Below are positions 7 through 64,000 of a DNA stretch of 64,000 bases, one piece after another. Position 1 is the stretch's first letter. Each line of letters opens with the position of its first letter. Below the pieces are notes generated by a model, which did no database searches, was not told where the DNA came from, and was given only the letters and a program-made list of their open reading frames with translations. The translations under genes were made by a program, and so were the position numbers. Where the stretch lies: positions 199,826,001-199,890,000 of the forward strand of contig OZ024743.1 in the NCBI GenBank assembly GCA_964016885.1, read 5' to 3'. The stretch is from Eledone cirrhosa. Taxonomy: Eukaryota.

Positions 7-192
7 GTAGGAGGTGAGTTTTATTGTAGTACAATAAAGCAATGCAGATATCGGATAAGAAGCACTCTACAGTTTGTAGGACTGGAGTATACATAATATA
101 TAAGAACAAAAGATGGTTAAAGGAGTTCCATGTATTTTGAAATGCGCATAATAAAATACATGGAACTCCTTTAACCATCTTTTGTTCTTATA
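7..192 (-). mobile_element. PLE family A terminal fragment (tail plus short inverted arm)
   Basis: Matches the 3' end of the 36813-40213 element. Palindrome AAGAACAAAAGATGGTTAAAGGAGTTCCATGTATTTT / AAAATACATGGAACTCCTTTAACCATCTTTTGTTCTT surrounds a partial hammerhead GAAATGCGCATA. Flanked by (TA)n. Confidence 0.8.
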
Positions 193-293
193 TATATATA
201 TATATATATATCTTTCACCGTATTTTTGACTAAAGAAATTTTAGCCTGATAATGGGGTTTAGAACCCTCAGATAAATGGAAAAAGATGAGTAT

Positions 294-364
294 TGACGTA
301 CATGGGAGTCGAACCCACATCTTTGGTTATCCAGACCACTGTGCTACCATTACACCAACACATC
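294..364 (-). tRNA. Inverted copy of the tRNA-like cloverleaf
   Basis: Reverse complement of 421-491 with one loop difference (CTGGATA). Confidence 0.55.
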
Positions 365-420
365 ACCCAAATGTGTGATGTGCTACAATTACACCAACAC
401 ATCACATCACACATTTGGGT

Positions 421-491
421 GATGTGTTGGTGTAATGGTAGCACAGTGGTCTGGAAAACCAAAGATGTGGGTTCGACTCCCATGTACGTCA
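421..491 (+). tRNA. tRNA-like cloverleaf (anticodon GGA, short variable loop); pseudo-tRNA or SINE head
   Basis: A box TGGTGTAATGG, D stem GTGT/GCAC, anticodon arm TGGT-CTGGAAA-ACCA, T arm GTGGG-TTCGACT-CCCAT, G-U-rich acceptor stem, TTTTT about 9 nt downstream. Confidence 0.6.
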
Positions 492-631
492 ATACTCATC
501 TTTTTCCATTTATCTGAGGGTTCTAAACCCCATTATCAGGCTAAAATTTCTTTAGTCAAAAATACGGTGAAAGATATTCTATTTTCTAATTTCAAACCTG
601 CTCACTGTTTCAAAACATATATATATATATA

Positions 632-842
632 TAGGAACGAGTAGGACCCCGACGGCTGAGCTCAAGCCATTTCGACGGCTAATTCTGGACTAAAATAATT
701 TTAGTCAAGAATTAGCCGTCGAAACGGCTGAGCTCACGCGTCGGGGTCCTACTCGTTCCTATTACCCACTCTACTACCCTAAGTATTGAGTACTTTGGTG
801 CGTTATGGTTCATCTGGTTCCTTACCACATTTCCTTCGTTAT
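632..842 (+). mobile_element. PLE family C terminal fragment (inverted arm, direct arm, tail)
   Basis: Homologous to 42463-42603 and 44145-44207. Contains the 3' half of the hammerhead (GCCGTC-GAAAC...GTC-GGGG). Confidence 0.8.
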
Positions 843-2972: not shown

Positions 2973-3184
2973 TAATTATATGTTTGTATGTGTGCGTGTG
3001 TGTGTGTAAGCCTATATGTGTGTATGTTTGATCGTACTTGCATAAAGCCCACTTCTATTTTACGCATGTATGTATGTGTGAATTCATACATACGTAAAAT
3101 AGAAGTGGGCTTTATGCAAGTACGATCAAACATACACACACATAGGCTTACACACACACACACACACATACAAACATATAATTA
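2973..3184. repeat. About 210-bp near-perfect palindrome
   Basis: GATCGTACTTGCATAAAGCCCACTTCTATTTTACG and its reverse complement, centred near GAATTC at 3080. Confidence 0.85.
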
Positions 3185-6596: not shown

Positions 6597-7138
6597 ATTT
6601 CGTTTCTGAATTTGTTTAGCAAGATTCTTTATCTGAAATCGTGTGTTGAAACCGATATTGTTATACTTTGGGAGGGTCATGTTGCCAATAAGAAACACAC
6701 GCACCAGTTGCTTTCACTTCAATTTATTATATATTTATAAATTTATAAATTTACAAATCTACAAACTTATAAATTTCTGGTTGGTTGGTTGGTTGGTTCC
6801 ACAACCAGATAGTTGTTTATATATAGTCATAGTCCTTTCGTCACACACTCTGTGACCTCTTCGGTGACTGGGGATTCCTTTCTTTGTTTCTGTGCCTTTC
6901 CTTTCTTCTGTCCTACACCATTTTGTTTCTGTGTGTGTCACTGAAGAGGTCACAGAGTGTGTGACGAAAGGACTATGACTATATATAAACAACTATCTGG
7001 TTGTGGAACCAACCAACCAACCAGAAATTTATAAGTTTGTAGATTTGTAAATTTATAAATTTATAAATATATAATAAATTGAAGTGAAAGCAACTGGTGC
7101 GTGTGTTTCTTATTGGCAACATGACCCTCCCAAAGTAT

Positions 7139-7147
<9 letters not shown>
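6597..7147. mobile_element. PLE family B, inverted pair of termini with tail on the left
   Basis: 6655-6868 is the reverse complement of 6937-7147. Same sequence as the 3' end of the GIY-YIG-bearing copy at 36440-36757. Confidence 0.85.
6937..6979 (+). ncRNA. Minimal type I hammerhead ribozyme (family B)
   Basis: GTCA-CTGAAGA-G-GTCACA(GAGTG)TGTGAC-GAAAG-GA-CTA^TGAC. The inverted copy at 6825-6869 has CCGAAGA. Confidence 0.75.
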
Positions 7148-10282: not shown

Positions 10283-13200
10283 TCACCCACCTTTCATAAA
10301 ACTGCCTGTGGCCAAGCACCTCTCCATTCTTATCCTTCTTCCGAAGTGATATCGGAAGAAGTAGACCAGACTATGGCCAGAGAGGAAGTTGCCTGACCTC
10401 AGACCTTTCAATCGTGTCCACCAAACAACCTCTTTCAACATGGCTATTACGCACAGAAAAACCGCCTTTGCTTCCTTTGTGAAGAGGGGAGGCGGCTTGA
10501 TTGTCATCACGGACTGGGCGGTCAATCGAATCGGCGCCACCCGCGACAGCAGTCGTTCGGCGTAGCCCCACAGATCAGCCACGCCCGGACATTGCACCAA
10601 TGCGTGCGCAACGGTTTCTTCGTGACGCACACATCTAGGGCAAATCTTTTTCGAGGGATCCCTGCCCGGGCGCCCGTGTCTGTAGAGCTTTTCTCGAACG
10701 GGTAGAGCCCCCCGGTAGCACTGCCAGGCTAGTGACTTCTGGAAGTTGTCCATTGGTCCCGGGCCGAAAGTCCTACCGAACAGGCTGGCCAGCTCGTCCT
10801 TTTCCGTGTCCAGAGACTCTCCAAGGGTGTCATCGCCCCTGCTAGCCACCAGCCCTCTATAGAATGACGAGGTGGATTCTCCACCGATGGCCGGGTCCGC
10901 TTGCCAGAGAGCCCTGAGCGCCTGGGCGCACTCAGTGTGCCAGTCTCCCAGTTTTCCGGATCTTTGCTTGACCCAGGACTGCAGCTCGGTGAGCGAGACG
11001 AGTCTTGGAAAGGCTCGTTTCACGAACGGAGCCCACACCGGTTGACCAGTGAGGAATACCTGTAGGTGCCGTAGCCTTAATGCGTGCCTACGCATCATCA
11101 ACCACGGCATCCCCAGCCCTCCTTTCGAAGGTTGTTGGCAGCAGATGGATCTTCTCACCATAGGAGGGCGCTTCTTCCAAAGAAATTGAAAGAGCATGCG
11201 TTCCATGGTGGTGAGTGTTTCCTTAGGGAAAGGCACGACAGTCAGGCGGTAGTAAGTGACGGACGCTATGTAAATGTTCGCCACCTACGCCCGACCTTTT
11301 AGGGACAGCTTACACTTGGCCCATTTCTGGGTTAGTGCAAACACCTTGTTCGTAACCTCGCCCCAGTTCTTTTCCACCTGGAGGTCCGGTCCAAACCAGA
11401 CACCCAGCAACTTCACCGGGACCTCCGTCCAGTGTCCGACGACACCGTCGGGAGGCATCGGTCTGTCTCTCCACGTTCCGAGTTGCAGCCCGATGGATTT
11501 TTCCCGGTTCAGTTTCGCTCCTGACAACTTTTCGTATTCCTCCAGTAAGGTACCGATCGCCTCGATCTCCGAGTCGGTCGATACCATTACTGTTACGTCA
11601 TCGGCGTAGGCCGACACCGCTTTCCTCAATCCTGGTTCCAGGGGGATACCCTGCAACAACTCCAACTTCCTCAGTAAAGGCTCGAGAGTCAATACGTACA
11701 GAAGGGAGGAGAGAGGGCACCCCTGTCGAATGGATCGTGTGATTTCGAACGGCTTCGAAAGGTAGCCGTTCACCTTGATCCTAGAACAGATGTGGTTGCT
11801 ATGTAAGGCAGTGATCCAGCCTCTGAAAACAGGACCGAACCCAGCCGCCGCTAGCACCGCATCCAGGTAACCATGGTCGACCCTATCGAACGCCTTAGAC
11901 TGATCCAAGTTGATCAGGGCCCCACCGAAGCCGGGTTTGTTGCCAACCCTCTCTATGATGTATCGCATGAGGTGGAGGTTGTCGTGAATGGACCTGGATG
12001 GGATAGCACATGTCTGCGCATCTCCCACCAGGCCACCCACGACAAGCGCCAACCTCTTTGCTAACACCTTGGCCAAAATCTTTAACTCTGTGTTTAGCAG
12101 GGTTATGGGCCGAAAATTATTTATACTATCTCCCTTGTTCTCGTCCTTCCTCGCCAGCGAGACTACGCCCTTGGCTACAGAACAAGGAATTCTCCAGTTC
12201 TGCTGCCAATTGCAGTAGACTGCTTCGAGGAGTTCGGAGAAGAAGACCGGCATTGCTAAATAAAGTTCGTAAGGTATACCATCGAGACCTGGAGATTTGC
12301 GTCTGCTGCATTGGCTCAGCGCATCTCCGATCTCATCAGCCGAGATTGGCCCCTCGCAGGACTCTGCCTCTTTGCTCGAGAGACACGGCAGACCGTCGAG
12401 GTATGGACCAAAATCCACGTCCCCGCCCGGACCTTCGCCTCCCCCGAATAATCGGGCAAAGTGCCTTTGAAAGGCCTCGCACATCTGCTTAGGCTCCCGG
12501 ATCACCCCTCCATCCTCATCTTGCAAAGACCGGATGGTGGATCGATTTCCACTCTTAGCTTCTGTCACGCGGGCCCAGCCAACGGTTTTGGCCCCCCCAT
12601 TACCTAGAGCACGTATTTTACTTCGAATGACGCAGCCTTCGTGCTTTGCATCGAAAAACTGGCTCAAGGCCGTCCTCGATGCCAGCACTCTGGCCACATC
12701 TTCGCTCTTGATTGCCTCTTCTAATTTACCTGTTAATTCTTTCTTGTTCCTATTCCTATCGGCAGCTAACATCTTGCTATAACTTATTGATTCTGTTCTA
12801 ATCTCTCTTTTGAGAGATGCCCACCATCGGTTGTTGACGATTGCACCCGTCAACCTCTCCTTAACTAATCTGCTAATCCGGTTTCTGTAAGTCTCTTTTG
12901 CCGGTAAAGACAAATTAAGTTTCCAGTAACCGGGACCCTGTCTATGTGTTTTCTCGAGATTGACTACGCAGGTCACTAATTTGTGATCCGTATAGCCAAC
13001 CGTGAGCATTTCTGGACAGCTTAATATGTCCCTATCCTTACTTCTAGCTAAGAATCTATCTAAGTACGATCTAGATTGACCACTGTGGTTCGTCCAAGTC
13101 CAGGTTGGCACAGTTGGAAAATCTAGTCGATATCTATCGACCAAGTTAAAACGGTCGAGTAACCCCTTGAGGCTGTTACACCCCCCTCTATTAGGACATG

Positions 13201-13657
13201 CTCCTGCATAGTCCCAACGTGCATCTAGGATGTCATTCCAATCCTCCGCTAGAAGCAGGGAACGCGACGTTCCCAGAAAAGTCTCCAGACGCTGGAAGAA
13301 GTCGGGTCGTTCAGCTCCGAAAGGGGAGTAGACGACGACCAGTCTCAAGGCCGCACCTTCACTACTGCCAACGTCTAGCACCAACAAACGACCTCCCGGG
13401 TCCGAGTGAACAATCTGTACGGCGAGACCCAGGTGTTTTTGCAGCAGTACGACAACCCCACCCCCACCTCCAGGTTGACAGAGAGATGCATGCACCTCAA
13501 AGTCATCGAAGGTAGGGGCCAGCTGCCGCACGACGCTGATCCGAGTCTCACAGATAACCATTACATTTATACCACGTGATCTGAGGTCATTTAGAAGCTT
13601 TGCTTGCTTCCAAGTTGAGCCCAGGCCACGTGCATTCAAACATCCTACTCTTAACAC
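10283..13657 (-). pseudogene. LINE ORF2p (APE endonuclease, RT, C-terminal Cys/His zinc motif) with one in-frame stop
   Basis: LNARGL, ETR, DWN, SYLDRF, TDHK; KSPGLDG, FRPITLLN, KAFDRV, RQGCPLS, AYADD; CPRC..ETVAHALVQC. TAG at 11285-11287 replaces the Glu seen in the sister copies (RAEVAN). Confidence 0.93.
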
Positions 13658-13695
13658 TCCATGTGGGCGGCAAAGCCAAAAGAGAGTGTAGAGAC

Positions 13696-15597
13696 CTACC
13701 TTTCTGCTTCCCGGGGTTCGGGTTGCACGACTTCCATGGGGTCGGGGGTGTTGGTTGAAGGGGTGTCTTGTGGTGGTGTGGGGTCGTCTGTGTGTGGTGG
13801 GGGTGGGGTGTTTGGAGTTGTGTTGGGGAGGGGAAGGGGAGGGGGAAAGATTTTTAGGAGGACGCGGTTTATGGGTTTGACAGAGGGTGGTCCTACGTCC
13901 TCGTTAAAATCCTTTTTTAGTTTTTGGTAGAGGTTCATTGGGATCTTTATTAATTTTAAATGTGGGTAGTTTTCTGAAGAAATAAAGTTTACCCCTTCGG
14001 TCTGTACCGAAGGGTTATTGTTTATGAGTTCATTTAATTTATTATTGTTTCTGTTGATGTAAGTATAGTGTAATGTCTTTTTTTCGGATGGTGTGAGTGT
14101 TTCGAAGAGGGGAGGGGCAGGTTTGGTTTTGTTTGTTGCAGGAGGGGTGTTTTGTGTTTTGTTGGATTGTATTGACATTTGGGTAGGGGTTGTTTGGCCT
14201 TGTGTGTTTTGCACATGCTTTCTTTTTTTCCTTTTAATCTGTCTGAAGGACTCCGTTTCTTCCTCCGAATTCGTTGGGTTATCTTCAGTGTTGGAGGGAA
14301 GAGGTATGTTTGCTAGTAATGTTTCCGTGTTGGTTTTCTTTGTGGGGGAGATGGATGTCACTATGTTAGACTGTGTTGTGTGTTGTGGCTTCGGTGGTTG
14401 TGTTGTTTTATTGAGTGAGGGGTTGGGTGGGACTGTGTTTTGTTTTGGGGTAATGTGTTGTGTCTGTTTGTGTTGTGGTGGTGGTGTAGTTTTTCTGAGG
14501 GACGGGTTGGGTGGGACTGAGTTTTGTTGTTTGTTTATCTGTTGTGGTGGTGGTGGAGCTGGTGTTGGTAGCAGGGTTTTCTTCTTGTTGAGTTGGGGAC
14601 AAGCCGCCTTCAGGTGCCCTCTGCCTGCACAGATATGACAGGACGGCTTTCTCCCCTCCACGCTAATGTTTATATACCCGTGGCCCTCTAATAGGATTCT
14701 GTCGGGTATTTGGGCAATGCGTTCAGGCTTCATTTGTACTACAAGTTCTATACCTGTTCCACTGAACGCATTGCCTGTGGTTTTCCCAATGGAAATCACG
14801 TTGTCATTCGCTGGATCGATGAAGCCAGCTATGAGCCAGCAGTAGTCCACATCTGGCATCATCGCATCCAGCCATATGCGCTGAGTTCTTTTACCAATAT
14901 AAGATGGATAAAAGGTAAAATTTGTCGAACGAATCGGCGACAAAGCATATTTTTTTGCCGCTGATTCGTTCTTCATAATAATCGCTAGGCTTCCATACAG
15001 TCTGTCTCTTCTTATGAAAGTGGCTTCATTAAGTACTTCTGTAAGTACTGCTTTAATTTCTGCTTGTGTTGGTTGTTGAGGTTTTTTTGAGATGTTGATG
15101 GTGCGGAAAACAACCGTCCGACTTTCAATATCTTTGGTGAGTTGTTGGGGCATTTTTACCGATAAGGTTCCATTTTCCCCTTGAGTTATGTATTGTTTGG
15201 CGTTTTTTAGTCTTTGTGCCGCATCTGAAATATTTTCAGGTATATATGTTAAAGATTTCTTTGTTGTTTGTGCAAATGAAATATTATTGGTGTTGACTTT
15301 GTCGTCTGCTTTGCTTTCTGTTATGATGTTGTTTTCAAATGTTATTTTTGTGTTTGTTGTTTCTTTGTTTGTGGTATTAATATTGTCATGCAATTCTTTC
15401 AAATTTTTGTTGTTGTTGGAATCAATCTCCAGATTTGTGTTTTCGTCATTTTTCTCCGCATATTCGTCTGTTTTTATTTTATTTTTTCTTTCCTTCTCTA
15501 TGACGTTAGTTGGGAAGGAAGAGGGGACTAAAGCGTGCGAGCTTACAACTCTTACCGCTGTCCCCCCACCACTATTTTCGTTAGCTTCGTTTAACAT
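13696..15597 (-). CDS. LINE ORF1p, nucleic-acid-binding protein with CCHC zinc knuckle
   Basis: 633 aa open frame with CHICAGRGHLKAAC followed by a Pro/Thr-rich linker. Lies directly upstream of ORF2. Confidence 0.85.
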   Translation of the reverse strand: MLNEANENSGGGTAVRVVSSHALVPSSFPTNVIEKERKNKIKTDEYAEKNDENTNLEIDSNNNKNLKELHDNINTTNKETTNTKITFENNIITESKADDKVNTNNISFAQTTKKSLTYIPENISDAAQRLKNAKQYITQGENGTLSVKMPQQLTKDIESRTVVFRTINISKKPQQPTQAEIKAVLTEVLNEATFIRRDRLYGSLAIIMKNESAAKKYALSPIRSTNFTFYPSYIGKRTQRIWLDAMMPDVDYCWLIAGFIDPANDNVISIGKTTGNAFSGTGIELVVQMKPERIAQIPDRILLEGHGYINISVEGRKPSCHICAGRGHLKAACPQLNKKKTLLPTPAPPPPQQINKQQNSVPPNPSLRKTTPPPQHKQTQHITPKQNTVPPNPSLNKTTQPPKPQHTTQSNIVTSISPTKKTNTETLLANIPLPSNTEDNPTNSEEETESFRQIKRKKRKHVQNTQGQTTPTQMSIQSNKTQNTPPATNKTKPAPPLFETLTPSEKKTLHYTYINRNNNKLNELINNNPSVQTEGVNFISSENYPHLKLIKIPMNLYQKLKKDFNEDVGPPSVKPINRVLLKIFPPPLPLPNTTPNTPPPPHTDDPTPPQDTPSTNTPDPMEVVQPEPREAER

Positions 15598-16092
15598 TTC
15601 TGCCAGACGATTGAAATTTTATGCCACCAAATTTTAAAAAACAGGTTTTTCACCCCTGGGAGGGGCGAAGACGAGCTGGCCCACCGCCTGACAGTTCAAA
15701 CGGCGGGTCAAGCTACACAATAGTATCAAAATTAAAATTAAACTTACAACATTTCCGCAATAAATTGGAACAAAACTTCTGCGCGAAGTGAATTACGTCT
15801 ACGCTGTAGAACAGACGACAGCTAGATTCATATCTACTTATATATATATAACCAGCAATTTCTCTGTCTGTCTGTCCGACAGTGGAAACACGTGCGTAGA
15901 GAGAGAGAGTGAGAGTGAAAGAAAGAGACAGACTACGAGAGGGGGATAGCGGGAGGGAGAGAGGGAGAGAGAGAGGGAGAGAGAGAGAGTCAATAGACGC
16001 TAAAACACGTGCTACAGAAACATTACCTTCCCCTCTCCACTAACTTTGGTCACTGAGGCCGAGGGAATCGCGCTGGGCGTGTCATAATGACG

Positions 16093-17346
16093 TAATGCAG
16101 ACAGCCAGACATACAGACAGATATTATAAGGGCGCAACGTTATATCTATGTATCTATCTAAAAAGAAAGACTAAGAATTATATAGAGAGAACACTAAATC
16201 GCCTAATGCGGTCCCTAGGGCATTGAAAATTTGAAATAATTTTTACTCAAAACACTCACAGGACCAGAAGTATTACATGTCTAAAGTTTGAAAGCAATCG
16301 GTTGGATGGTTCTCAAGTTTTAGTGAGCTGACAGACAGACAGACATTCTCTGTTTTAGATATATAGACTAGCAGAAAACCGCCCCCGGGTGGTTTTCTGC
16401 TAGTCTATATATATAAAACTGAGGATGTCTGTCTGTGTGTGTGTGAGTTTGAATCCATAAAACTCGAGAAGCACCCAACCGACTGTTTTCAACCTTTACA
16501 CATGTAATGCTTACGTTTCAGGGAGTGTTCTGAGCAAAAAGAATTTTAAATTTTCAATGCCCTAGGGACCGCATTAGGTGATTTAGCGATCTCTCTCTAT
16601 AATTCTTAGTCTTTCTCTTTTTAGATAGATACATACATATAACGTCGCGCCCTTTTAATATCTGTCTGTATGTCTGGCTGTCTGCATTACATCACTTTCC
16701 TGAGGATGTCTGTCTGTATGTATGTGTGTGTGTGTGTGTGTCTGTCAGTTTGAATCCCTAAAACTCGAGAAGTACCCAACCGATTTTTTTCAAGCTTTAC
16801 ATGTGTATTACATGTTTCAGGGAGTGTTATACCCATAAACAAATTCAATTTTTGATCTCCTAGGGCTCGCATTAGGTTAAAAACAGCGTTTTTTTTTAGC
16901 TTTTTAAGGTTTTTTTGAGGCGTTACGTCAGACCGATTTCCTTGAAATTGTAACTATGTATTAGTCAGTCTCTCTTCATACAGTGAGCAAAGAAAATCTA
17001 ACTTTTTTTATGGCCTAGGGCCCACATTAGGTTAAAAACTTCATTTTTTCAGCTTTTTAGGGCTTTTTGGAGGCGCTACGTCTAGCCGATTTTCCCGAAA
17101 TTTCAAGGCATATATTATGCATATAAAAAAAATGTATTTTCTTGATCCCCTAGAGTCCGCATTAGGTGATAACCTGCATTTTTCCTGCTTCACCGACCAA
17201 AATCTTAAAGATTATCCAGCCATCAGAGTATTCGGTTTATTCTCTTTACATATTGTCCAGGCATGGAGTTTTTTCCATGATTAGGTCTGTTGGAGGCCCG
17301 CGTTCCAAAACACCTTATCCCCTGCAACGCCGGGTACCACTGCTAG
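16093..17346. mobile_element. Non-autonomous Helitron-like repeats, head-to-head then tandem
   Basis: 5' ends TCTATATATATAAAACTGAGGATGTCTGTC at 16404(+) and 16367(-). 3' end GCAACGCCGGGTACCACTGCTAG at 17346. Internal subrepeat CTAGGGxCCGCATTAGG. Confidence 0.7.
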
Positions 17347-35620: not shown

Positions 35621-35717
35621 GTATATATATATATACATACATATATATATATATATATATACATATATATATTGTTATACTTTGGGAGGGTCATGTTGCC
35701 AATAAGAAACACACGCC

Positions 35718-36197
35718 CTAAAGAAACATAATCTCAATATTAAGATAGTAGAAAGACCTGGTACCTCCGTAAAAACACTTATTAGCAAGACATACCCGTT
35801 CCAAAGACCCTCATGTATAGATAAGAAATGTATAACCTGTAAAATAAGCCCCCATATTAACTGTAAAACTAGAAATGTAGTATATAGCATAAGATGTACT
35901 GAGGGACAATGTAGAAACAAAAATATAGTGGACATAGGTGAGACAGCTCGTAGTATAGGGGAACGAATAAATGAACACTGGCGAGACCTCCAAGATAGTA
36001 AAGAATCATCTATGCTCTACCAACATGCTAAGATAGAACACAGGGGTAAATTAGAGAGCATAGAAATAAAAATAGAATCCACACACAAGAAAGACGCAAT
36101 GTTTAGGCAAATTACAGAGGCAGTAAGCATAAAAGAATTAAAACCAAAATTAAATAGAAAATATGAGTGGAACAGCAACATCACAACTTACAATTAA
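35718..36197 (+). CDS. C-terminal GIY-YIG endonuclease of a PLE (5'-truncated)
   Basis: [22 protein letters not shown]...[16 protein letters not shown]...HAKIEH...[17 protein letters not shown]. The YIG Tyr appears as Asp. Confidence 0.85.
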
Positions 36198-38099: not shown

Positions 38100-39360
38100 A
38101 CTTTATGGAAAGTTCTATGGGATTTATGTAAGCAGAGCGAAAATAAATCTGTACATCTATTTATTATAGAATTAAAATTAGAGATAATGGTAAATTTCTC
38201 GGCTAGGCAGAGATTATATGTTCTGGATAGGTAAGAATCCGGTAAGGAAAGGCGTTGCAAACCTTCCTCCAAGAGATGTTGTAGTTAATATTTTTGTCTT
38301 TTAAGGACCATATGAGTTCCGAGATTGCCGTGTTAGTTCTTTTAAGTTGGTATTTAAAAGACGAATTGTGATTATAAAATCTTGCTTTAAAGGAAGTGGA
38401 AGTGGAACCAAAATAGGTAAAAGAATTAGTACCAGTTATAACCTTAAATTCATACACTAAATTTTTATCAAGACATTGGTTATTAAGAGGACATTTAGTT
38501 CTAACAGGGCAATTACAATTACGATTAGAGAAATTACCAGAGTTATTAACTAGTGACCTAGTATTATTTGTAGAAGGAATTGGATTGGAGAAGTTATTTA
38601 CGATAGGAACTATAGTTTCCTGATTTAGATTGGTGTTATGAACATTCGACAAAGTTACGTTTGACGTCGTATTTAAATTTACTGAATCTAGCCTAGAGTT
38701 AACATTGACGTTGGGTTTACTATTGCTATTATTATGACGCTCAGTGTTGGATGGATATAATTTATTATTTAATATTTTATTATATGTTTAGAGATAATGT
38801 TAGAGATGTTGGAAGTGGTGGAATAAGAGAATTTGATTGTATGTTTGTTAAAGATCTTACTATAGATATGCGAGGGGGGGGGGGGCATTTATCTAAGGCC
38901 CTAAAAAATAGTCTAGGAATATTACTAGTAATAAATAGAGAAAAAAGAGCATTGTACCAAATCATATTTTTGTATCTAGGTCTTTTATTTAAGTTATTGG
39001 TATATTCATAACTAACTATTTTACTATAAGTCCTTCGATGATTGGTTTCTTTACTGTATTTAATTTTATCAGGATAACCGGCTTTGGAAAGCGCATTATT
39101 ATAATAATTGGCATTAGCGTCGAACATAACTTTATTAGAGGATAGATTTGAGATTCTTTTTTCAACATTACTGACTATAGCATTTTTAACGTTAGTGGGG
39201 TGGTTAGATTTAAAATTAACATAATTTAGATTCTCATTGTCTTTATGGTAAGGGTAATATAGGCCGGTGTCAAGATTAAGGGATATATCCAGGAAGTTAG
39301 CTAGTTTGACGTTGTTTTCAAATTCAATTTTTAGGTTATGGTGCTTAAATAGATCAAGTA
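38100..39360 (-). pseudogene. PLE ORF remnant (RT thumb, linker, GIY-YIG), frameshifted
   Basis: NFLDISLNLDTGLYYPYHK..SNHP..RISNLSS..YNNALSKAGY..IWYN; CNC..KCPLNNQCL..LVY..TYFGST..FKARFYNH..W; CLAEK. Confidence 0.85.
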
Positions 39361-40020
39361 TATTATTCTTAATAATATTAAGGTTAACTAAGTTACTTTT
39401 TTTTTTTCCTCCTTAAATTTTTTTCTTTCTTCTCTCCTTACGTGCTCGTATTAAACCTATTGTTTACTTTTACATATTACAATACATAAAAACAAACTTA
39501 AACCCTAACTAATAGCTCTAAGTTCATAATTCATTTAATCTCTCCTTCATTCACATTATATCCTTAATATTTTTATTTTAATAATACATATTAATAAAAT
39601 CTTTTTTCGCACATATTATTAAACCCTTCAATATATAAACCTTAAATAAATACTATTCTTAATTCCTTTTTCTTTAATCATAAACATCACCATTCATAAA
39701 CCTCATTAACTTTTAATTTCAAAATCTTTTTAAATTATCTATTATCGTACAACGGTTTTTTAATTTCCCTCTGTGAGACAGTGTTTTCTCAGTTTTAAAG
39801 GCTATCTCTCTCTCGCTCTCTCACTCATTTTTCCTCCTCTCTCATCCTTCCTTCTTATACTCCTCCCCCGTCATCCTTTATTTTCTTTCTTCCTCTTCCT
39901 TACCCCCCCCCCTCCTTTTTTCCCCCCAATGTCATATATCCATCTTACTTTATTTTTCATGTGTTGATTTAACACTTCACTGCTCGCAAGTGTTTTTTAA
40001 GCTTCATATTATGTCTCCCT

Positions 40021-45854: not shown

Positions 45855-46208
45855 GCAAAGAGATATTTAATTTGTTGGTTATTCAACAGATTCGAAGCAC
45901 ACTAGAGGTTTCTTCTGGAGTATAATATCAATGATATTAATAAATGGAAACTATCTTTATAAAACCATATTTATTTCATTATATATATTTCAAGGGTACC
46001 AACATTTTGGTACGCTCTCATCAGATAAAATACAAAACTGAACTTAAAACGATGTTCTTGATTTTTTTGGGATATGTCAATATTTATAAAACAACTTTTG
46101 TATTTTATCTGATGAGAGCCTACCAAAATTTTGGTACCCTTGAAATATATATAATAAAATAAATATGGTTTTATAAAGATAGTTTCCATTTATTAATATC
46201 ATTGATAT
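45855..46208. mobile_element. PLE family D inverted termini with tail (degenerate relative at about 31040-31200)
   Basis: 45925-46038 is the reverse complement of 46095-46208. Each arm has a hammerhead. Confidence 0.8.
46101..46161 (+). ncRNA. Type I hammerhead ribozyme (family D); inverted copy at 45972-46032
   Basis: TATTTTAT-CTGATGA-GAG..TACCAA/TTGGTA..CTT-GAAA-TATATA-TA^ATAAAATA. Confidence 0.8.
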
Positions 46209-46232
46209 ATATATATACATATATATAGATAA

Positions 46233-56224: not shown

Positions 56225-59200
56225 TGATTTCATTTATTAGCCACAAGGGCCGACATGTAGGGGACAATACAAAGACAGGGACAGTGGGGGTTTACGATAA
56301 GGTCGAGTAAAAGTGCACAATGGCAAGACTAATTTAACAATGAAGATATAAAAATATAAAATAAACTATGCATAAATATAACAAAATAAATTCCCCAATA
56401 GGGGGTGGACGACCCTGGCGTGACTCGGGTACCACACCAATCCGGAACCACCCTGCGCTTCTAGGGCACCCAGGGAGAGCACCCCTCTCCTCAAGTTAGC
56501 TAGCCTATAGGCGCATGGTCAGAGTAGGCCCATTCACACGAGCCATTCTCGCCACATTCATCCACCTTTTAGCAAATCTACTGGGGGCAGCACTTCTCCC
56601 TCCGCCCTCACCTTCCTTTCCGGGTGAAACTTGAAGAAGTTGATGAGAGATTGGCCGAAGAGAAAAGTGTCTGTCTTCAGTCCTTTTAATCCGGTCCACC
56701 ATATAACCTCTTTCGCAACTGCCACCATACAGAAGAAAATTTCCTGCTCTTCCTGACGTAAGGAAGGCGGTGGGTCGATCTTCACTATGGACTCGGCCGA
56801 TAGCCGGATTCGTTCCACACGCAACAGTAGCTGTTCGACATAACTCCACAAGTCAGTAATGCACGGACATTGGACAAGTGCGTGCAGAACGGTTTCGTTC
56901 AGCGCGCATCTTGGGCAGGTCCGTCTGACAGCACTTCCGTGCCTGTAGAGTTTATCCCGAACCGGCAGTGCCCCCCTGACTGGTCAGTTCGACTTCGTCG
57001 AGGCCCAAAGCTTCTCCGAGTGTGTCATCGCACCTGCCCACCACTAATCCTCTATAGAACTCGAGAGTGGAAGTTCCACTGATCGCATTGCCCGCTTGGT
57101 AGAGGGCAGTGAGTGCCTGACAACATTCCAGGTGCCAGTCACCCAGTCTCGGGCTCTTCTTGACCCAGGACTGCAGCTCAGTCAAAGAAATGAGCTGCGG
57201 AAAGGCTTGTCTCATAAACGGAGACCACACCTGTTCACCGTTTAGGCAGAATATCTGGAGATGTCGCAGCCTGAACGCATGTCTGCGCATCATTAGCCAC
57301 GGCATGCACAGACCTCCACGTAGAGGGTGCTGGCAGCAGATGGACCGCCTCACCAACGGAACTCGTCCCCTCCACAAAAATTTGAAGAGGAGCCGTTCCA
57401 ACTTGACGAGGCGCGGACGGGGGCAAGGCAGGACGGTCAATAGGTAGTAGATGCCGGACGCGATGTACACATTCGCCACCTCCGCGCGACCTTTCAGTGA
57501 TAGCTTCCTCCCAGCCCATTTTTGGGTGAGACTGGCTATTCTGCTCGTTACCTCGTCCCAATTCTTTTCCACCTGGAGGTCTGGTCCGAACCAAACCCCG
57601 AGAAACTTTACCGGTCCGTCCGTCCATCGCCTCACGACGCTGTTGGACGGCATGGGCTTGCTTCTCTAGGTTCCGAGCTGCAAGCCCACCGACTTTTCTG
57701 GGTTAAGTTTGGCTCCTGTCAAACTTTCATATTCCTTCAATAAGGTACCGACCACCTCGATTTCTGAGGTGTTCGACACCATCACGGTGATGTCGTCCGC
57801 ATAAGCAGACACCGCCTTTCCACGTCCTGGTTAGAGCGGGATGCCCTGCAACAGCTCCATCCTCCGCAGTAAAGACTCGAGAGTCAATACGTACAGAAGG
57901 GAAGAGAGAGGGCACCCTAGACGGACCGATCGGGAGAGCCGAAATGGTTCCGAGAGGTGGCCAATAACCTTGACCACCGAGCGTGTGCCGCTCTGCATTG
58001 CAGCGATCCAGCTTCTGAAGACAGGGCCGAAGCCAGCTGCTTTGAGGACAAACTCCAGATACCGATTGCTTTCGATTGATCTAAATTGATCAGTGCCCCA
58101 ACGAAGCCAGGTTTACACCCTACCCTCTCTATGGTGTATCGCATGAGGTGGAGATTGTCGTGTATGGATCTGGCTGGGATTGCGCAAGTTTGCGCATCCC
58201 CAACCAAATCCTCGACGACAAGCTCCAATCTCTTTGCTAACACCTTGGTCAAAATCTTAAACTCTGTGTTGAGCAGAGTTATGGGCCTGAAGTTGTCTAA
58301 TGTATCCCTCTTGTACTCGTCTTTCCTTATCAGCGTCACCACTCCCCTGCTCACAGAACTGGGAATAATCCCATTCTGCTGCCAGTTGCAGTAGAGTGCT
58401 TCGAGGAGATCGGAGAAAAAGTCTGGCATATTTACTTAAAGCTCATAGGGCAGGTCATCCAAACCGGGTGACTTGCGCCTCATGCAGCCGACAAGGGCGT
58501 CCTGAATTTCGGCTGAAGTAATTGGCCTTTCGCAGCGCTCAGCGTCGACTGTCGAGATGCGCGGCAAGCCGTGAAGGTAGGGACTGAATTCCGCTACTCT
58601 CTCTGACTCGCCACTCTCCACGAACAACCGAGCAACGTGCTGGCGAAAGGCCTCACACATCCGCTTGGAATCGCTTATCTCGTGTCCGTCTCGGTCAGCC
58701 AAAGACCGAATTGTGGTTTTATTACCACGCTGCACCTCCGCCACGCGGGCCCATCGAACAGCTTTGGTTCCCTCGTTTCTCAGCGCACACGCCTTAGCTC
58801 AGACAATGCAACCTCGTGTTTCGCATTGAAGAAATGGTCCTATGCCATTCTCGCCACTGGCACGTCAGTTGCAATGCCACTACAAATAGCCTCGTCTAAC
58901 TTATCTACCAGCTCCCCCTCCTTTCTATTTTTCTCTAACGCTAGTTTTTGCTGAACTCTATCGAAGTTACTCTAATCTCTCTTTTGAGAGCCCCCTACCA
59001 TCTGTTGTTCATGATCACCCCTGACAACTTTTGCTTAACTAAATTGTTGACTCGGTCCCTGTAAGCCTTACGTGCCGGAAATTATATGTTCAGCTTCCAG
59101 TAACCCGGTCCTACCCTACGCGTTTTATCTAGGTCGACCGTACAGATCATAAATTTGTGATCTGAATAGGCGACCGTTTTAAAAAGTGGGCAGCCTACAC

Positions 59201-60325
59201 TATTTCTATCTATTTTCCTAATGAAGATCCTGTCTATATGCGATCTAGATGACCCCATTCAGTTGGTCCATCTCCATACTGGCACATTGGGGAAATCTAG
59301 TCGATACCTGTCAGACAGTTGGAACTGGCTGATCAGGTTCTTGAAACTTTTGCACCCCCCGCTCCTATCGGCTACTCCCACACAATCCGAGCGTACGTCT
59401 AAGATGCCATTCCAGTTCCCCGCTAACAGTAAAGGGCGAGACGTACCCAGAAAGGTCTCCAGGCGCCTAAAGAAGTCCAGTCGTCCGGCCCCTATAGGGG
59501 CGTAGACGGCTAGCAGTCTAAAGGCACCACCTTCGCTACTGCTCACATCCAAGACCACCAACTTAGCGTCCGGGTCCCAGAAGATCGACATTACCTCGAG
59601 ATCCAGTCCTTTCCTAAACAGCACTGATTCCCACCTCCCATTCCCGGCCTGCTAACAGATGCGGAGATCTGATAGTCGTCAAAAATGGGGGCTAGTGCGC
59701 GCGTGTCGGAAGTTCTGGTCTCGTTGATGGCAATCACATCCATTTCCAGCGACCTGAGGTCGTAGAGCAAGCGATCCTGCTTCCAGGGTGACCCCAGGCC
59801 CCGAATATTTAAACGTCCTACTCTTAATATGGCCCTGTTGGCAAGCTAAAAGAGAGAGGGAAGGTTTACTTACCTCCCGGGGTCTTGTGAAGGTCGGGTG
59901 GTTCGACCTCCATGGTTGGTGGGGTTTCTTTTGGGAACCCTTTTAAAAGTCTCGATGTGGGTTTCACATTCGTGGTTCCCACGTCTTGAGAAAAGGTCTC
60001 TCGAATTTCTTTGAAGGAATCGAGTGACATTCGGACCAGAAGCAAATCTTCTGGCACGCAAAATGTGCTCATTTCAAAATCTCCCCCTCTGTTTGAATGT
60101 CCTCGGTTCGTGCTAAGAGAGCCATCAATTTATCGTTGGCCCTTCTGACAAGCACGAAGTTTTTAACATTTTGTTGGTGTGGTTTTATTTGTTTTCGTTT
60201 TGGTGACTGTGTTGGTGATGGTTTGGTGGTGTTGTTTCCGGTATGTCTGTGTTTGTTGTAGGTGTGGTGTCTGCAATTTCAGGTTTTTGTGTGTTTATTT
60301 GTACTTGTGTTTGTTTAGGTTGTTT
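56225..60325 (-). mobile_element. Degenerate 5'-truncated L1/Tx1-like LINE
   Basis: EN (59259-59830), RT (57727-58744) and C-terminal fragments with many frameshifts. ORF1 remnant at 59870-60320. 3' end AATAAAGAAATCA-like, next to (TTC)n. Confidence 0.92.
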
Positions 60326-60349
60326 ATAATAATAATAATAATAATAATA

Positions 60350-63300
60350 ATGATTTCTTTATTAACCACAAGGGTTTACACAAAGTAGACATTAAGGACA
60401 GTACAGGACAATACAGGACGGTACAAAAGGGCATTTCTGCGTGTGAAAAAAAAAAACAACAGAGGATGTAATAATAGAACAATGAAAAAATTCCCCAATA
60501 GGGGGGAGACTTCCGAGGGACATTCGTGGAGAAAGCCCAGTAAAAAGCCACAGTGACCCTGACCACCAGGGCAAGTACCCTCTCCCAATTTTCCACCTTT
60601 AATTTACAGACACATACTCAGAATAGGCCCATTCACTCGCGCCAATCTTGCCTCTCTCACCCATCTTTGAACAAAATGATGGGAAGAGAGCACTTCCCTC
60701 TCTACCCTGATTTTCCTTTTCAAATGAAATTTGAAAAAGTTAATCAGGGCATCACCGAAGAGGTAAGTGCTCGTCTTCAGCCCTTTCAAACGTGTCCACC
60801 ATACTATCTCTTTCGCCATGGCCACCAGACAGATAAAAACTGCCTGCCCTTTCCGGCTAAAGGAAGAGGGCGGGGCATCCTCACGATGGACTCAGCTCAT
60901 AGCTGGATGGGTCCTACACGCGACAGCAGATGTTCGACATAAACCCACAAGTCAGCAATGCTCGGACACTGGACGAGTGCGTGCAGGACGGTTTCGTCGC
61001 CCTGCGCGCATCTCGGACATGCCCGGCTGACGGCACCTCCATGCCTGTAGAGTTTATCCCGAACTGGCAAAGCTCCTCGGTAGCACTGCCAGGCCAGGGA
61101 TTTCTGGAAGTTGTCCATAGGCCCCCGCCCGAAAGTTCTTCCGAAGAGATTGGCTAGTTGATTTTCGTCGACGCCTAGAGTTTCCCCAAGTACGTCGTCG
61201 CTCTTCCCCTCCACTAATCCTCTATAGAACGCCGAGGTGGAGTTTCCACCGATCACATTGCCCGATTGGTCGAGGACATTCCAGTCTCCAAGCGCTCCCT
61301 CTCGGTCTTCGCTTGACCCAGGACTGCAGCTCCGGCAAGGAGACGAGCTGGGGAAAGACGCGTCTAGCAAACGGCGACCACACCTGATAACCGTCGAGGA
61401 AGAGGTAGAGATATCGTAGCCTGAGCGCGTGTCTGCGCATCATCAGCCACGGCAAGCCCAGCCCTCCACGTAGCGGGTGTTGACAGCAGATGGACCGACT
61501 CACCATCGGAGCGCGTCCCTTCCACAAAAAGCGAAAGAGCAAACGCTCCAGAGCAGTCAGGCGGGGCTTAGGACAAGGTACGACGGTCAGGAGGTAGTAG
61601 ATGACGGACGCGATGTACGCGTTAGCCACCTCCACTCGACCTTTCAGGGATAGCTTCCTCTCCGCCCATTTCTGGGTAACACAAGCCACCCTGCTCGTCA
61701 CCTAGTCCCAGTTTTTGTCCGTCTGGAGGTCCGGACCGAACCAGACCCCTAGCAATTTAACCGGTCCGTCCCTCCAGCGCCCGACGACACTGTTGGACGG
61801 CATGGACCTGCCTCTCCAGGTGCCGAGCTGCAGGCCCGCTGACTTTTCCTGGTTGATCATTGCTCCTGTCACCGCTTCGTATTCTTTTAGAGTAGTGCCG
61901 ATCGCCTCGATGTGTTTGGCGTTCGACACCACTACGGTGACATCGTCCGCATATGCTGACACGGATATTCCGCATCCTAGTTCGCGCGGGACCCCCCTCA
62001 ACTTCTCCAGTTTGTGCAGTAATGGCTCGCGAGTCAATACGTACAAGAGGGACGAGAGGGTACATCTTTGGCGGACCGAGCGCATGATGTTGAACGGTTC
62101 CGAAAGGTGACTATTCACTCTCACCACAGAGCAGATGTCGCTGTGCATGGCAGAGACCCAGCCTTTGAAGACGGGCCCAAAGCCAGCCGCCCTCAGGACT
62201 GCTGCTAGGTAACGATGGTCGACCCTATCGAAAGCTTTCAACTGATCTAAATTGATCAAGGACCCACCCGTTCCAGGTTCCCTAGCTACCCTCTCTACGA
62301 TGTATCGCATGAGTTGGAGGTTGTCGTGGATGGATCTGTCGGGAATGGCGAATGTCTGCGCCTCTCCCACCAGACCACCAACGACAAGCGCCAACCTCTT
62401 TGCTAGCACCTTGGTCAAAATCTTGAACTCTGTGTTTAGCAGAGTTATGGGCCTAAAATTATCTATGTTATCCTCCTTGTTCGGATCCTTTCTCAGCAGC
62501 GCCACAGCTCCTCGGCTCACAGAGCTGGGAATTCTTCCGTTCTGTTGCCAGTTGCAGTAGACGTCCGCCAAGAGGCCTCCGAACAAGTCTGGCATCTGTA
62601 CGTAAAGTTCATAGAGCAGACCATCCAAACCAGGCGATTTACCCCTTGTGCAGCCAGTCATTGCCTCCCGTACTTCAGCGGCTGTTATCGTCTTTTCGCA
62701 ACACCCCGCCTCAGTGGCCGAGAGCCGCGGCAGTCCGTCGAGGTAGACACTAAAGTCCATCCATCGATCCGGCCCGCCGCTGCCCCCGAACAGCTGGGCG
62801 AAGTGTCGCTGGAAAGCTTCACACATTTGCCCGGGATCGAGTAGCATGCGCCCGTCGTGGTCCACCAAAGACCGGATCGTGGTTTTGTTGCCACGACGCG
62901 CCCTAGCACTAACAACGCAGCCTTCGTGCTTTGCATTGAAGAATTGGTCAAGGGACAATTTCGCCGCAAGTACGTCGGTCGCGATCCCTTTGCTAAGCGC
63001 CTCGTCTAATTTTCTAACTAGTTCTCCATCTGCTCTATTTTTCTCTATTGCTAAAGCCTTACTAAACCTAATGGACTCTATTCTAATCGCTTTTTTCAGG
63101 GCAAACCACCACTTGTTGTTCACGATGGCCCTCGTCAACGCCCGCTTAACTAGTTCGCTAATTCAGTCACTGTAGGCCTTGCGCGCTGGTAAAGACGCGT
63201 TTAGCTTCCAGTAGCCGGGTCCTCGTCTATGAAGCCTATCTAAGTCAAGCACACAGATCACGAATTTGTGGTCCGTGTAGCTGACTATCTTGAATTGTGG

Positions 63301-64000
63301 ACGGCCTATGCTAGACCTATCTATTTCCCTACAAAATACTCTATGTAGATATGATCTGGATGACCCAAGTCGGGAAATCCAATCGGTACCTGTCAGACAG
63401 TTCAAAACGCCTGAGCAGGTTGGTGAGGCTCTTGCACCCTCCTCCCCTATCCGCTAATCCCACACAGTTCCAGCGTGCATCTAAGATCCCGTTCCAGTCA
63501 CCCACTAACACTAAAGAGCGGGACGTTCCAAGAAAGGTCTTCAGACGCCGGAAGAAATCAGGCCGCCTTGCTCCTGTCGAGGCGTAGACGGCCACTAGCC
63601 TGAAAGCTTGCCCGTCTCCGTTGGTCACGTCCAGCACCACCAACTTACCCTCTGGGTCCAGGAAGATGGCCTGTATGGCGAGATCCAAACCTCTCCGAAA
63701 AAGCACAGCAACTCTTCCCCCCGATCCCGGACGGCTGGGAGATGCGTACACATCGTAGCCGCCGAAGATCGGTGCGACGGCCCGTGCTTCGGAAATGCTG
63801 GTCTCGCTGATGGCCACTACATCTATGTTTAGTGAGCTGAGGTCGTTGAGCAGGTGGCCCTGTTTCCATGACGACCCCAAGCCACACGCATTTATGCTGC
63901 ATATTCTGAGTGAGGTCATGTTGAAATGGAGTGGAAAAGATGGGAAAGACCACTTACCTTACTTCTCGTAGAGGAAGGATGGTTTCTCCATCCTTTTCAC
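60350..64000 (-). mobile_element. L1/Tx1-like LINE with disrupted ORF2, continuing past the window end
   Basis: ORF2 starts at 63919 (MTSLRICSINACGLG). RT at 61702-63138 with AYADD. CPRC..ETVLHALVQC. 3' end AATAAAGAAATCA next to (TTA)n. Confidence 0.93.

Follow-up and report, generated by a model that had tools for sequence, protein, structure and literature searches.

A tRNA-headed tandem repeat of Eledone cirrhosa as a likely SINE-like passenger of Penelope elements

Non-autonomous passengers that carry a small-RNA promoter are known for LINEs (the SINEs) and for LTR elements (TRIMp3), and the repeat unit analyzed here looks like the missing counterpart for Penelope-like elements (PLEs). 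Insertions of the PLEs Hydra and Naiad, as described in PMC8557442, consist of an inverted, 5'-truncated arm, a tail at one end and partial tandems in (TA)n targets, and the PLE reverse transcriptase (RT) uses two internal 3' start sites according to PMC11167929. From a different field comes the observation that m1A58 is a known RT stop on tRNA templates, where the enzyme halts one base before A58 (PMC13191261). Searches of the open literature turned up no tRNA-headed PLE passenger, and the family may already be recorded under another label in Repbase, Dfam, subscription journals or supplements.

The DNA analyzed, hereafter the window, is a stretch of 64,000 nt of the 3.0 Gb genome of Eledone cirrhosa (contig OZ024743.1 of GCA_964016885.1, positions 199,826,001-199,890,000, forward strand). 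Because it joins a tRNA-shaped segment to a Penelope-type insertion layout, one of its repeats is likely to be a SINE-like passenger of Penelope enzymes.

Insertion layout of the unit and its family

At 208-619 the window carries a single insertion of a 260-bp non-coding unit composed of a cloverleaf and a structured body (Table 1; unit positions are numbered from the first tRNA base, and the canonical A58 is unit 56). Its inverted arms measure 175 nt each and are 99% complementary, and the arms (208-577 overall), the 3' extension and the (TA)n flanks are all present as an initial annotation of the window had described them. The re-copied segment that it had seen at the centre is likewise found: the centre comprises 46 nt, and a 27-mer from the tRNA 5' end occurs twice, at 340-366 and 379-405, with the two copies 96% alike. 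The junction may have arisen by template jumps at the 5' end of the RNA. The window copy is atypical of its family in starting at -5 on both arms; just 7 of 127 arms taken in genome order begin near the tRNA 5' end.

Table 1. Features of the hairpin insertion, in window positions
Feature	Position	Strand	Remarks
Left (TA)n target microsatellite	189..210	.
Inverted arms	208..382 / 403..577
Left arm	208..369	-	Unit -5 to 157; ends at the short 3' site (site A)
tRNA-like cloverleaf, left arm	294..364 (ARAGORN 293-365)	-	Rfam 49.7 bits and ARAGORN
Junction between both 5' ends	370..415	.	Re-copied tRNA 5'-end piece (379-405) and a 10-nt piece found on both arms
Leader, 5 bases kept 5' of the cloverleaf	416..420	+	Family edge at -6, putative Pol III start
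tRNA-like cloverleaf, right arm	421..491 (ARAGORN 420-492)	+	Rfam 55.6 bits and ARAGORN
Right-arm cloverleaf parts	A box ~428-439; anticodon GGA 453-455; B box ~470-480; A58 476	+
5'-truncation hot spot of the family	477..488	+	Unit 57-68; passed in the window copy
Trailer with T5 (501-505)	494..512	+	Predicted 19-bp helix; partner (unit 242-260) absent from the window copy
Structured body up to site A	513..577	+	Predicted hairpins P1, P2 and 5' strand of P3; putative PLE-recognition domain
Unpaired 3' tail of the right arm	578..~619	+	Unit 158-~199; site B, with the family mode at 203-211
Right (TA)n target microsatellite	618..633	.

Far from being single-copy, an outcome that the initial annotation had named as speaking against its reading, the unit belongs to a repeat family of well over a thousand copies, with genome-wide exact-pattern matches numbering 899 for the tRNA part, 1,756 for a body 23-mer and 816 for a motif of subfamily C (reversed controls, 0). 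It is a 260-bp tandem monomer with at least three subfamilies, and it forms arrays of ~25 and at least 16 units, the former bounded by PLE-type ends. These satellite-like arrays (L189, G000:C1:131.4575-131.4674 Mb, with PLE-type ends and internal duplications; L190, G000:C3:191.35 Mb) are candidate source loci. An origin of the 25-unit array in one step, from a single RT run, is not supported because of the duplications within it. At subfamily-diagnostic sites, tandem units inside one insertion agree in 870/970 cases and opposite arms in 1680/1839, compared with 65% between separate loci, which would be expected if one template were copied repeatedly or if the tandem source were homogeneous, and does not discriminate between a circle and linear read-through.

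Insertion layout was scored on the first 100 of the 1,756 body-23-mer matches in genome order, which yielded 76 loci with 127 arms of at least 40 nt after 11 shorter pieces had been dropped. Divergent inverted arms occur in 51 of the 76 loci and convergent arms in none, so that the copies do not show the ordinary SINE layout that had been named as the other adverse outcome. A short 3' end (A) is paired with a tailed 3' end (B) in 43 of the 51 divergent loci, and the 3' ends cluster at unit 152-174 (A) and 203-217 (B), about 40-50 nt apart. Most arms (112/127) end in (TA)3 within 14 nt, 27 of the 127 pass through the tRNA into a preceding unit as partial tandems, and 25 of the 76 loci have no joined second arm. 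On divergent arms both termini are joined straight to the TA target, with no A-rich tail, and (TA)n on both flanks makes a target-site duplication unreadable. A MITE, an L1-type inversion and a SINE tail are ruled out by this layout. It matches the PLE structure given in section 6 of PMC8557442 and both internal start sites in PMC11167929, active TA-targeting PLEs are present in the genome, and the unit has very probably been moved by PLE machinery.

Both flanking neighbours of the window insertion are 3' ends of Hydra-like PLEs, where this and the other clade names rest on motifs compared with PMC8557442. The neighbour at 631-842 is the 3' end of a young family (Hydra-1; L252, G000:C1:437.20 Mb), whose 784-aa frame is intact and whose tandem units measure 3,531 bp; its hammerhead-like fold has a variant core and a very long stem II with a sharp 5'-truncation hot spot inside it, and Pfam gave no match in its C-terminal piece. 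A second Hydra-like family at 88-204 and 38203-39412 (L279-L303) has a canonical hammerhead with a short palindrome as its stem III, and the hairpin at 88-204 is centred on that palindrome. A Neptune-like PLE at 35706-36197 (L254-L278), also with a canonical hammerhead, is present in many identical copies and has open frames of ~1,280 aa. Elsewhere (L072), a unit arm runs into a short piece of a Hydra-1 3' end that points the same way, with hardly any TA spacer between them, which reflects either a nested insertion or a template switch between both RNAs. The window also contains LINE-type RT and endonuclease frames on the minus strand (10283-15618 and ~56950-63960) and more long hairpins at 2973-3184, 6655-7146, 16088-16694 and 45921-46213, possibly additional PLE scars.

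No copy of the unit continues into an ORF-bearing element, since what lies upstream is another unit, the other arm or flank, and 43 free 5' ends have no common colinear continuation. The copies were thus found neither to reach a PLE ORF nor always to begin at the cloverleaf, the two outcomes between which the initial annotation had proposed to decide. No similarity was found by blastn between the unit and three autonomous PLE families, and its local alignment to the neighbouring family (631-842) scored within shuffles, which is why no partner is named; a 23-nt likeness to that neighbour's scar is partly the scar's own junction and is not significant. The earlier statement that there is no intact hammerhead agrees with a type I descriptor that was negative on both strands of three unit subfamilies and positive in three of three autonomous PLE controls, in one of them only with a relaxed core. 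An Rfam search with E as high as 5 likewise gave no hammerhead for the unit but overlooked those of the controls as well, which makes it uninformative here. Within the body, a CTGA...GAAA spacing has been retained that resembles a decayed hammerhead half-core.

The tRNA-like head and the edge of 5' truncation

The initial annotation had placed a cloverleaf with A and B boxes and a T5 on the right arm alone; the cloverleaf is present on both arms. ARAGORN calls tRNA-Ser(GGA) on each, and Rfam RF00005 scores the right arm at 55.6 bits (E 2.9e-9) and the left at 49.7 bits (E 1.2e-7), compared with a gathering score of 29. The anticodon GGA without a long variable arm, also noted earlier, is confirmed. 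As a tRNA-Ser gene the head fails, with a variable region of 4 nt in place of a long variable arm and a varying anticodon in place of a stable anticodon loop: of 111 anticodons counted, 76 are GGA, 20 are CGA and 15 are other, and the CGA form also alters U33. Because the anticodon loop varies, the head is not a decoding tRNA. As to a parent tRNA, a Gln-like pattern, which we take the head to resemble, had 0 matches, and 13 tRNA or tRNA-like sequences of the genome aligned poorly, where 63 of ~552,000 candidates were scored. A second tRNA-like repeat (L123, L125-L133), ~1.7 kb long and AT-rich, is fixed at its left end and contains an internal cloverleaf (53-72 bits) with anticodon GGC, AGC, GAC, GGT or GTC; it is not PLE-like in layout and is possibly a DNA element.

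Subfamilies agree most closely in the tRNA part (0.94-1.0 versus 0.68-0.93 for body 151-200), a difference partly biased by how loci were found. In structure predictions the unit folds better than shuffles (z about -2.1 to -2.6), with z = -3.45 for leader, tRNA and trailer. A 19-bp helix is predicted between unit 74-92, in the trailer including T5, and 242-260 (pair probabilities 0.7-1.0); it would place nt 260 beside nt 1 and extend the acceptor stem in a tandem or a circle. The helix has no two-sided change at subfamily level. Between subfamily majorities there are one two-sided change (in body stem P3), five one-sided changes that keep the pair and, at the ends of helices, several breaks. 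Across 40 copies, covariation does not exceed that of shuffles (0.069 versus 0.068), and minimum-energy and alignment folds of the unit give no full cloverleaf. The structure of the unit is best read as a prediction.

Among 138 arms that carry the D arm, a set enriched by locus-finding, 97 read into a previous unit and 41 stop. Sixteen loci and L091 have their start between -6 and -1, in seven cases at -6, where microhomology leaves some of the calls ambiguous, and five loci start at -9 to -24; many of these full-length starts come from a search that favours copies covering +1. Full-length copies mostly keep 2-6 leader bases, a pattern more in line with an unprocessed Pol III start than with RNase P cleavage at +1, and no 5'-end pile-up is seen at the RNase Z site. 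Judged from such ends, transcription by Pol III from the tRNA promoter is fairly probable. The T5 at +81 lies 10 nt past the cloverleaf, and host tRNA-Thr genes have T4-T5 directly after them; Pol III read-through must therefore be assumed, and much of the output should stop before the body. Host tRNA-Thr genes form dense tandem clusters at L122 and L124 (G000:C1:243.65-243.68 Mb).

Most copies fall short of these starts at one sharp edge. Of the 98 arms that reach unit 68, 60 stop at 55-68, just 3' of A58, a rate of 0.044 per nt compared with 0.003-0.005 downstream; among the 38 arms that pass 55, 4 end at 31-34 and 6 at 1-15, with not one ending at 35-54. By farthest arm, 39 of 76 loci stop at 55-68, and a second cluster lies in the anticodon loop, where 7 of 15 ends within the tRNA fall at 31-34. 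Exact junctions centred on CATG (unit 61-64) number 554 genome-wide, on several haplotypes, with a control count of 1, and 11 of 22 single-arm copies, scored by eye, start at 55-71. In the first 100 of the 816 subfamily C matches, also scored by eye, 45 read through and 55 are truncated within 47-65, with 54 of the 55 beginning at 56/57-65 (six loci at 56-58) and one at ~52. The body of subfamily C is ~29 nt longer, which puts the B end 171-174 nt away instead of 142-146 nt; the edge stays where it was, and thus keeps to the tRNA rather than to a given distance from the B end. Subfamily C thereby rules out a fixed-distance ruler from the B end; a ruler from site A may still apply within the family. 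The palindrome as sole cause was rejected, given that a 6-nt palindrome at 124-129 is met first and has few ends and that single-arm copies stop likewise.

Unit 57 is the end expected for an RT blocked by m1A58 (PMC13191261). The RT stop likely depends on the tRNA fold, and, with somewhat less assurance, m1A58 specifically is the probable cause: most copies end right after base 58, likely because the cell modifies the element RNA like a real tRNA. Read-through arms have no excess of change at A58 (5/127 = 0.039 versus an A-position mean of 0.034), and only 1 of 8 arms on a second pass stops at 55-68. Cleavage in the T-loop or the tRNA elbow itself could leave a similar edge. Summed depth in three runs, assembled as contigs of one sample of unrecorded kind, rises near unit 62, a crude measure that is not independent support.

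Candidate mechanism and alternative explanations

On balance, the favoured account is a Pol III-transcribed, tRNA-headed, non-coding tandem element that PLE RT/endonuclease copies in trans into (TA)n sites. Pol III would start ~6 nt before the cloverleaf, and a fraction of transcripts would read through T5 into the body and the next unit; the head would fold as a tRNA and host enzymes would methylate A58. A PLE protein would then nick both strands of the TA tract and prime cDNA at the internal sites A and B. Most cDNAs would stop at m1A58 and be joined to each other via the CATG palindrome (61-64) or to the target via AT/TA microhomology, while unmodified templates would be copied through, giving full-length or multi-unit copies as possible new sources. 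The option of a Pol III RNA mobilised in trans by PLE machinery, one of two that the initial annotation had offered, is thus sustained by the family-wide layout and the full-length starts at -6 to -1; as a plain SINE it does not hold, in view of the 260-bp tandem form, the 27 of 127 arms that run into a preceding unit and the loss of the 5' three quarters of the tRNA from most copies. The other option, an autonomous PLE whose RNA end is cut by RNase P or Z, finds no support, as there is neither an ORF-bearing continuation nor a pile-up of 5' ends at +1 or +72, and the 3' ends of insertions lie 80-140 nt downstream of the tRNA.

The data also bear on a ribozyme-less retrozyme, a circular-RNA parasite in which a tRNA mimic replaces the ribozyme: RNase P would cut at each cloverleaf, the 19-bp helix would hold the monomer ends together as a splint for ligation into a circle, and Penelope RT would copy that circle, rounding it when A58 is unmodified, with m1A58 acting as a brake written into thousands of truncated copies. 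The predicted juxtaposition of nt 260 and nt 1, the fold score of leader, tRNA and trailer, the agreement of units within an insertion at a level like that of opposite arms, the two arrays and a monomer size like that of metazoan retrozymes (PMC7229834) are all compatible with it. The helix forms equally well within a linear unit, however, and lacks a subfamily-level two-sided change; PLEs make partial tandems regardless, the internal duplications separate the big array from a single RT run, and full-length copies keep leader bases instead of starting at +1, all of which leaves the circle unlikely.

Rather improbable, and more so than the circle, is a non-autonomous PLE end fragment with a tRNA-like passenger, read through by Pol II, in which the RT stop is a generic structure or protein block. 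Hydra-1, which has no tRNA, has its own sharp hot spot ~140 nt from the far 3' end, with 25 of 51 incidental arms within 11 nt, so that a hot spot as such needs no tRNA; T5 would hinder Pol III, the body keeps its half-core spacing and A58 lacks a misincorporation signal. Against this, the edge tracks the T-loop and lies at the base just past A58, no region is better kept than the tRNA part, subject to the bias mentioned, and a tRNA-type promoter would suit the starts at -6 to -1. A hairpin-forming satellite, a MITE or a conventional SINE mobilised by a LINE would account for the tRNA head with A and B boxes, the LINEs in the window and the long arrays, yet the two arms are copies of one stretch and each has a defined 3' end of its own, the outer ends are unequal and a joined second arm is often lacking, unlike terminal inverted repeats, and there is no A-rich tail and few arms start at the head; as such, this explanation is very improbable.

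Relation to known systems

The probable mobilisation of the unit by PLE machinery is best appreciated by comparison with the systems that the unit resembles. With the Hydra and Naiad PLEs (PMC8557442, PMC11167929) it shares the inverted 5'-truncated arm, one-end tail, partial tandems, (TA)n targets and two internal 3' starts, whereas it has a tRNA-like head and lacks an RT or GIY-YIG ORF, a hammerhead and any sequence in common with the three families tested. Metazoan non-LTR retrozymes (PMC7229834) are likewise non-coding tandems of ~300 bp, found from dimers to large multimers, for which PLEs were proposed as mobilisers; in the unit, known from DNA, a cloverleaf stands instead of a type I hammerhead and the PLE signature was counted directly. 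The unit provides direct evidence, at the DNA level, of the ability of PLE machinery to mobilise a non-coding RNA in trans, an ability so far proposed for retrozymes, and its 260 nt make up a minimal PLE substrate that lacks a hammerhead, has both start sites mapped and should be useful in vitro.

Similar to tRNA-derived SINEs (PMC8969392, PMC10886601), the unit is short and non-autonomous and consists of a body preceded by a tRNA head that bears A and B boxes, but its layout is that of PLEs and not of LINEs, it is tandem, has no A-tail, keeps a full cloverleaf and exists mostly as copies without promoter. The TRIMp3 elements Cassandra, Helenus and Ajax (PMC10886601) also place a small-RNA promoter in a non-autonomous element that is neither LINE nor SINE, with a tRNA anticodon that mismatches its body; those are LTR elements, whereas the mapped unit layouts contain no LTR pair or PBS/PPT arrangement. 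Finally, the plus-strand strong stop of retroviruses (PMC13191261) involves the same halt of RT one base before A58 of a tRNA template, at m1A58, with the difference that the tRNA there is the primer, while here the tRNA-like part belongs to the element's own template and the stop truncates its copies. If the stop is indeed m1A58, the genome preserves a record, exact to the base, of a modification on a transposon RNA, and the host's methylation of tRNA would hold the element in check by leaving most new copies without a promoter. Taken together, the unit appears to play for Penelope elements the part that SINEs play for LINEs, and its size and tandem form recall those of a retrozyme, yet it differs from SINEs in its layout and from retrozymes in carrying a cloverleaf where they carry a hammerhead.
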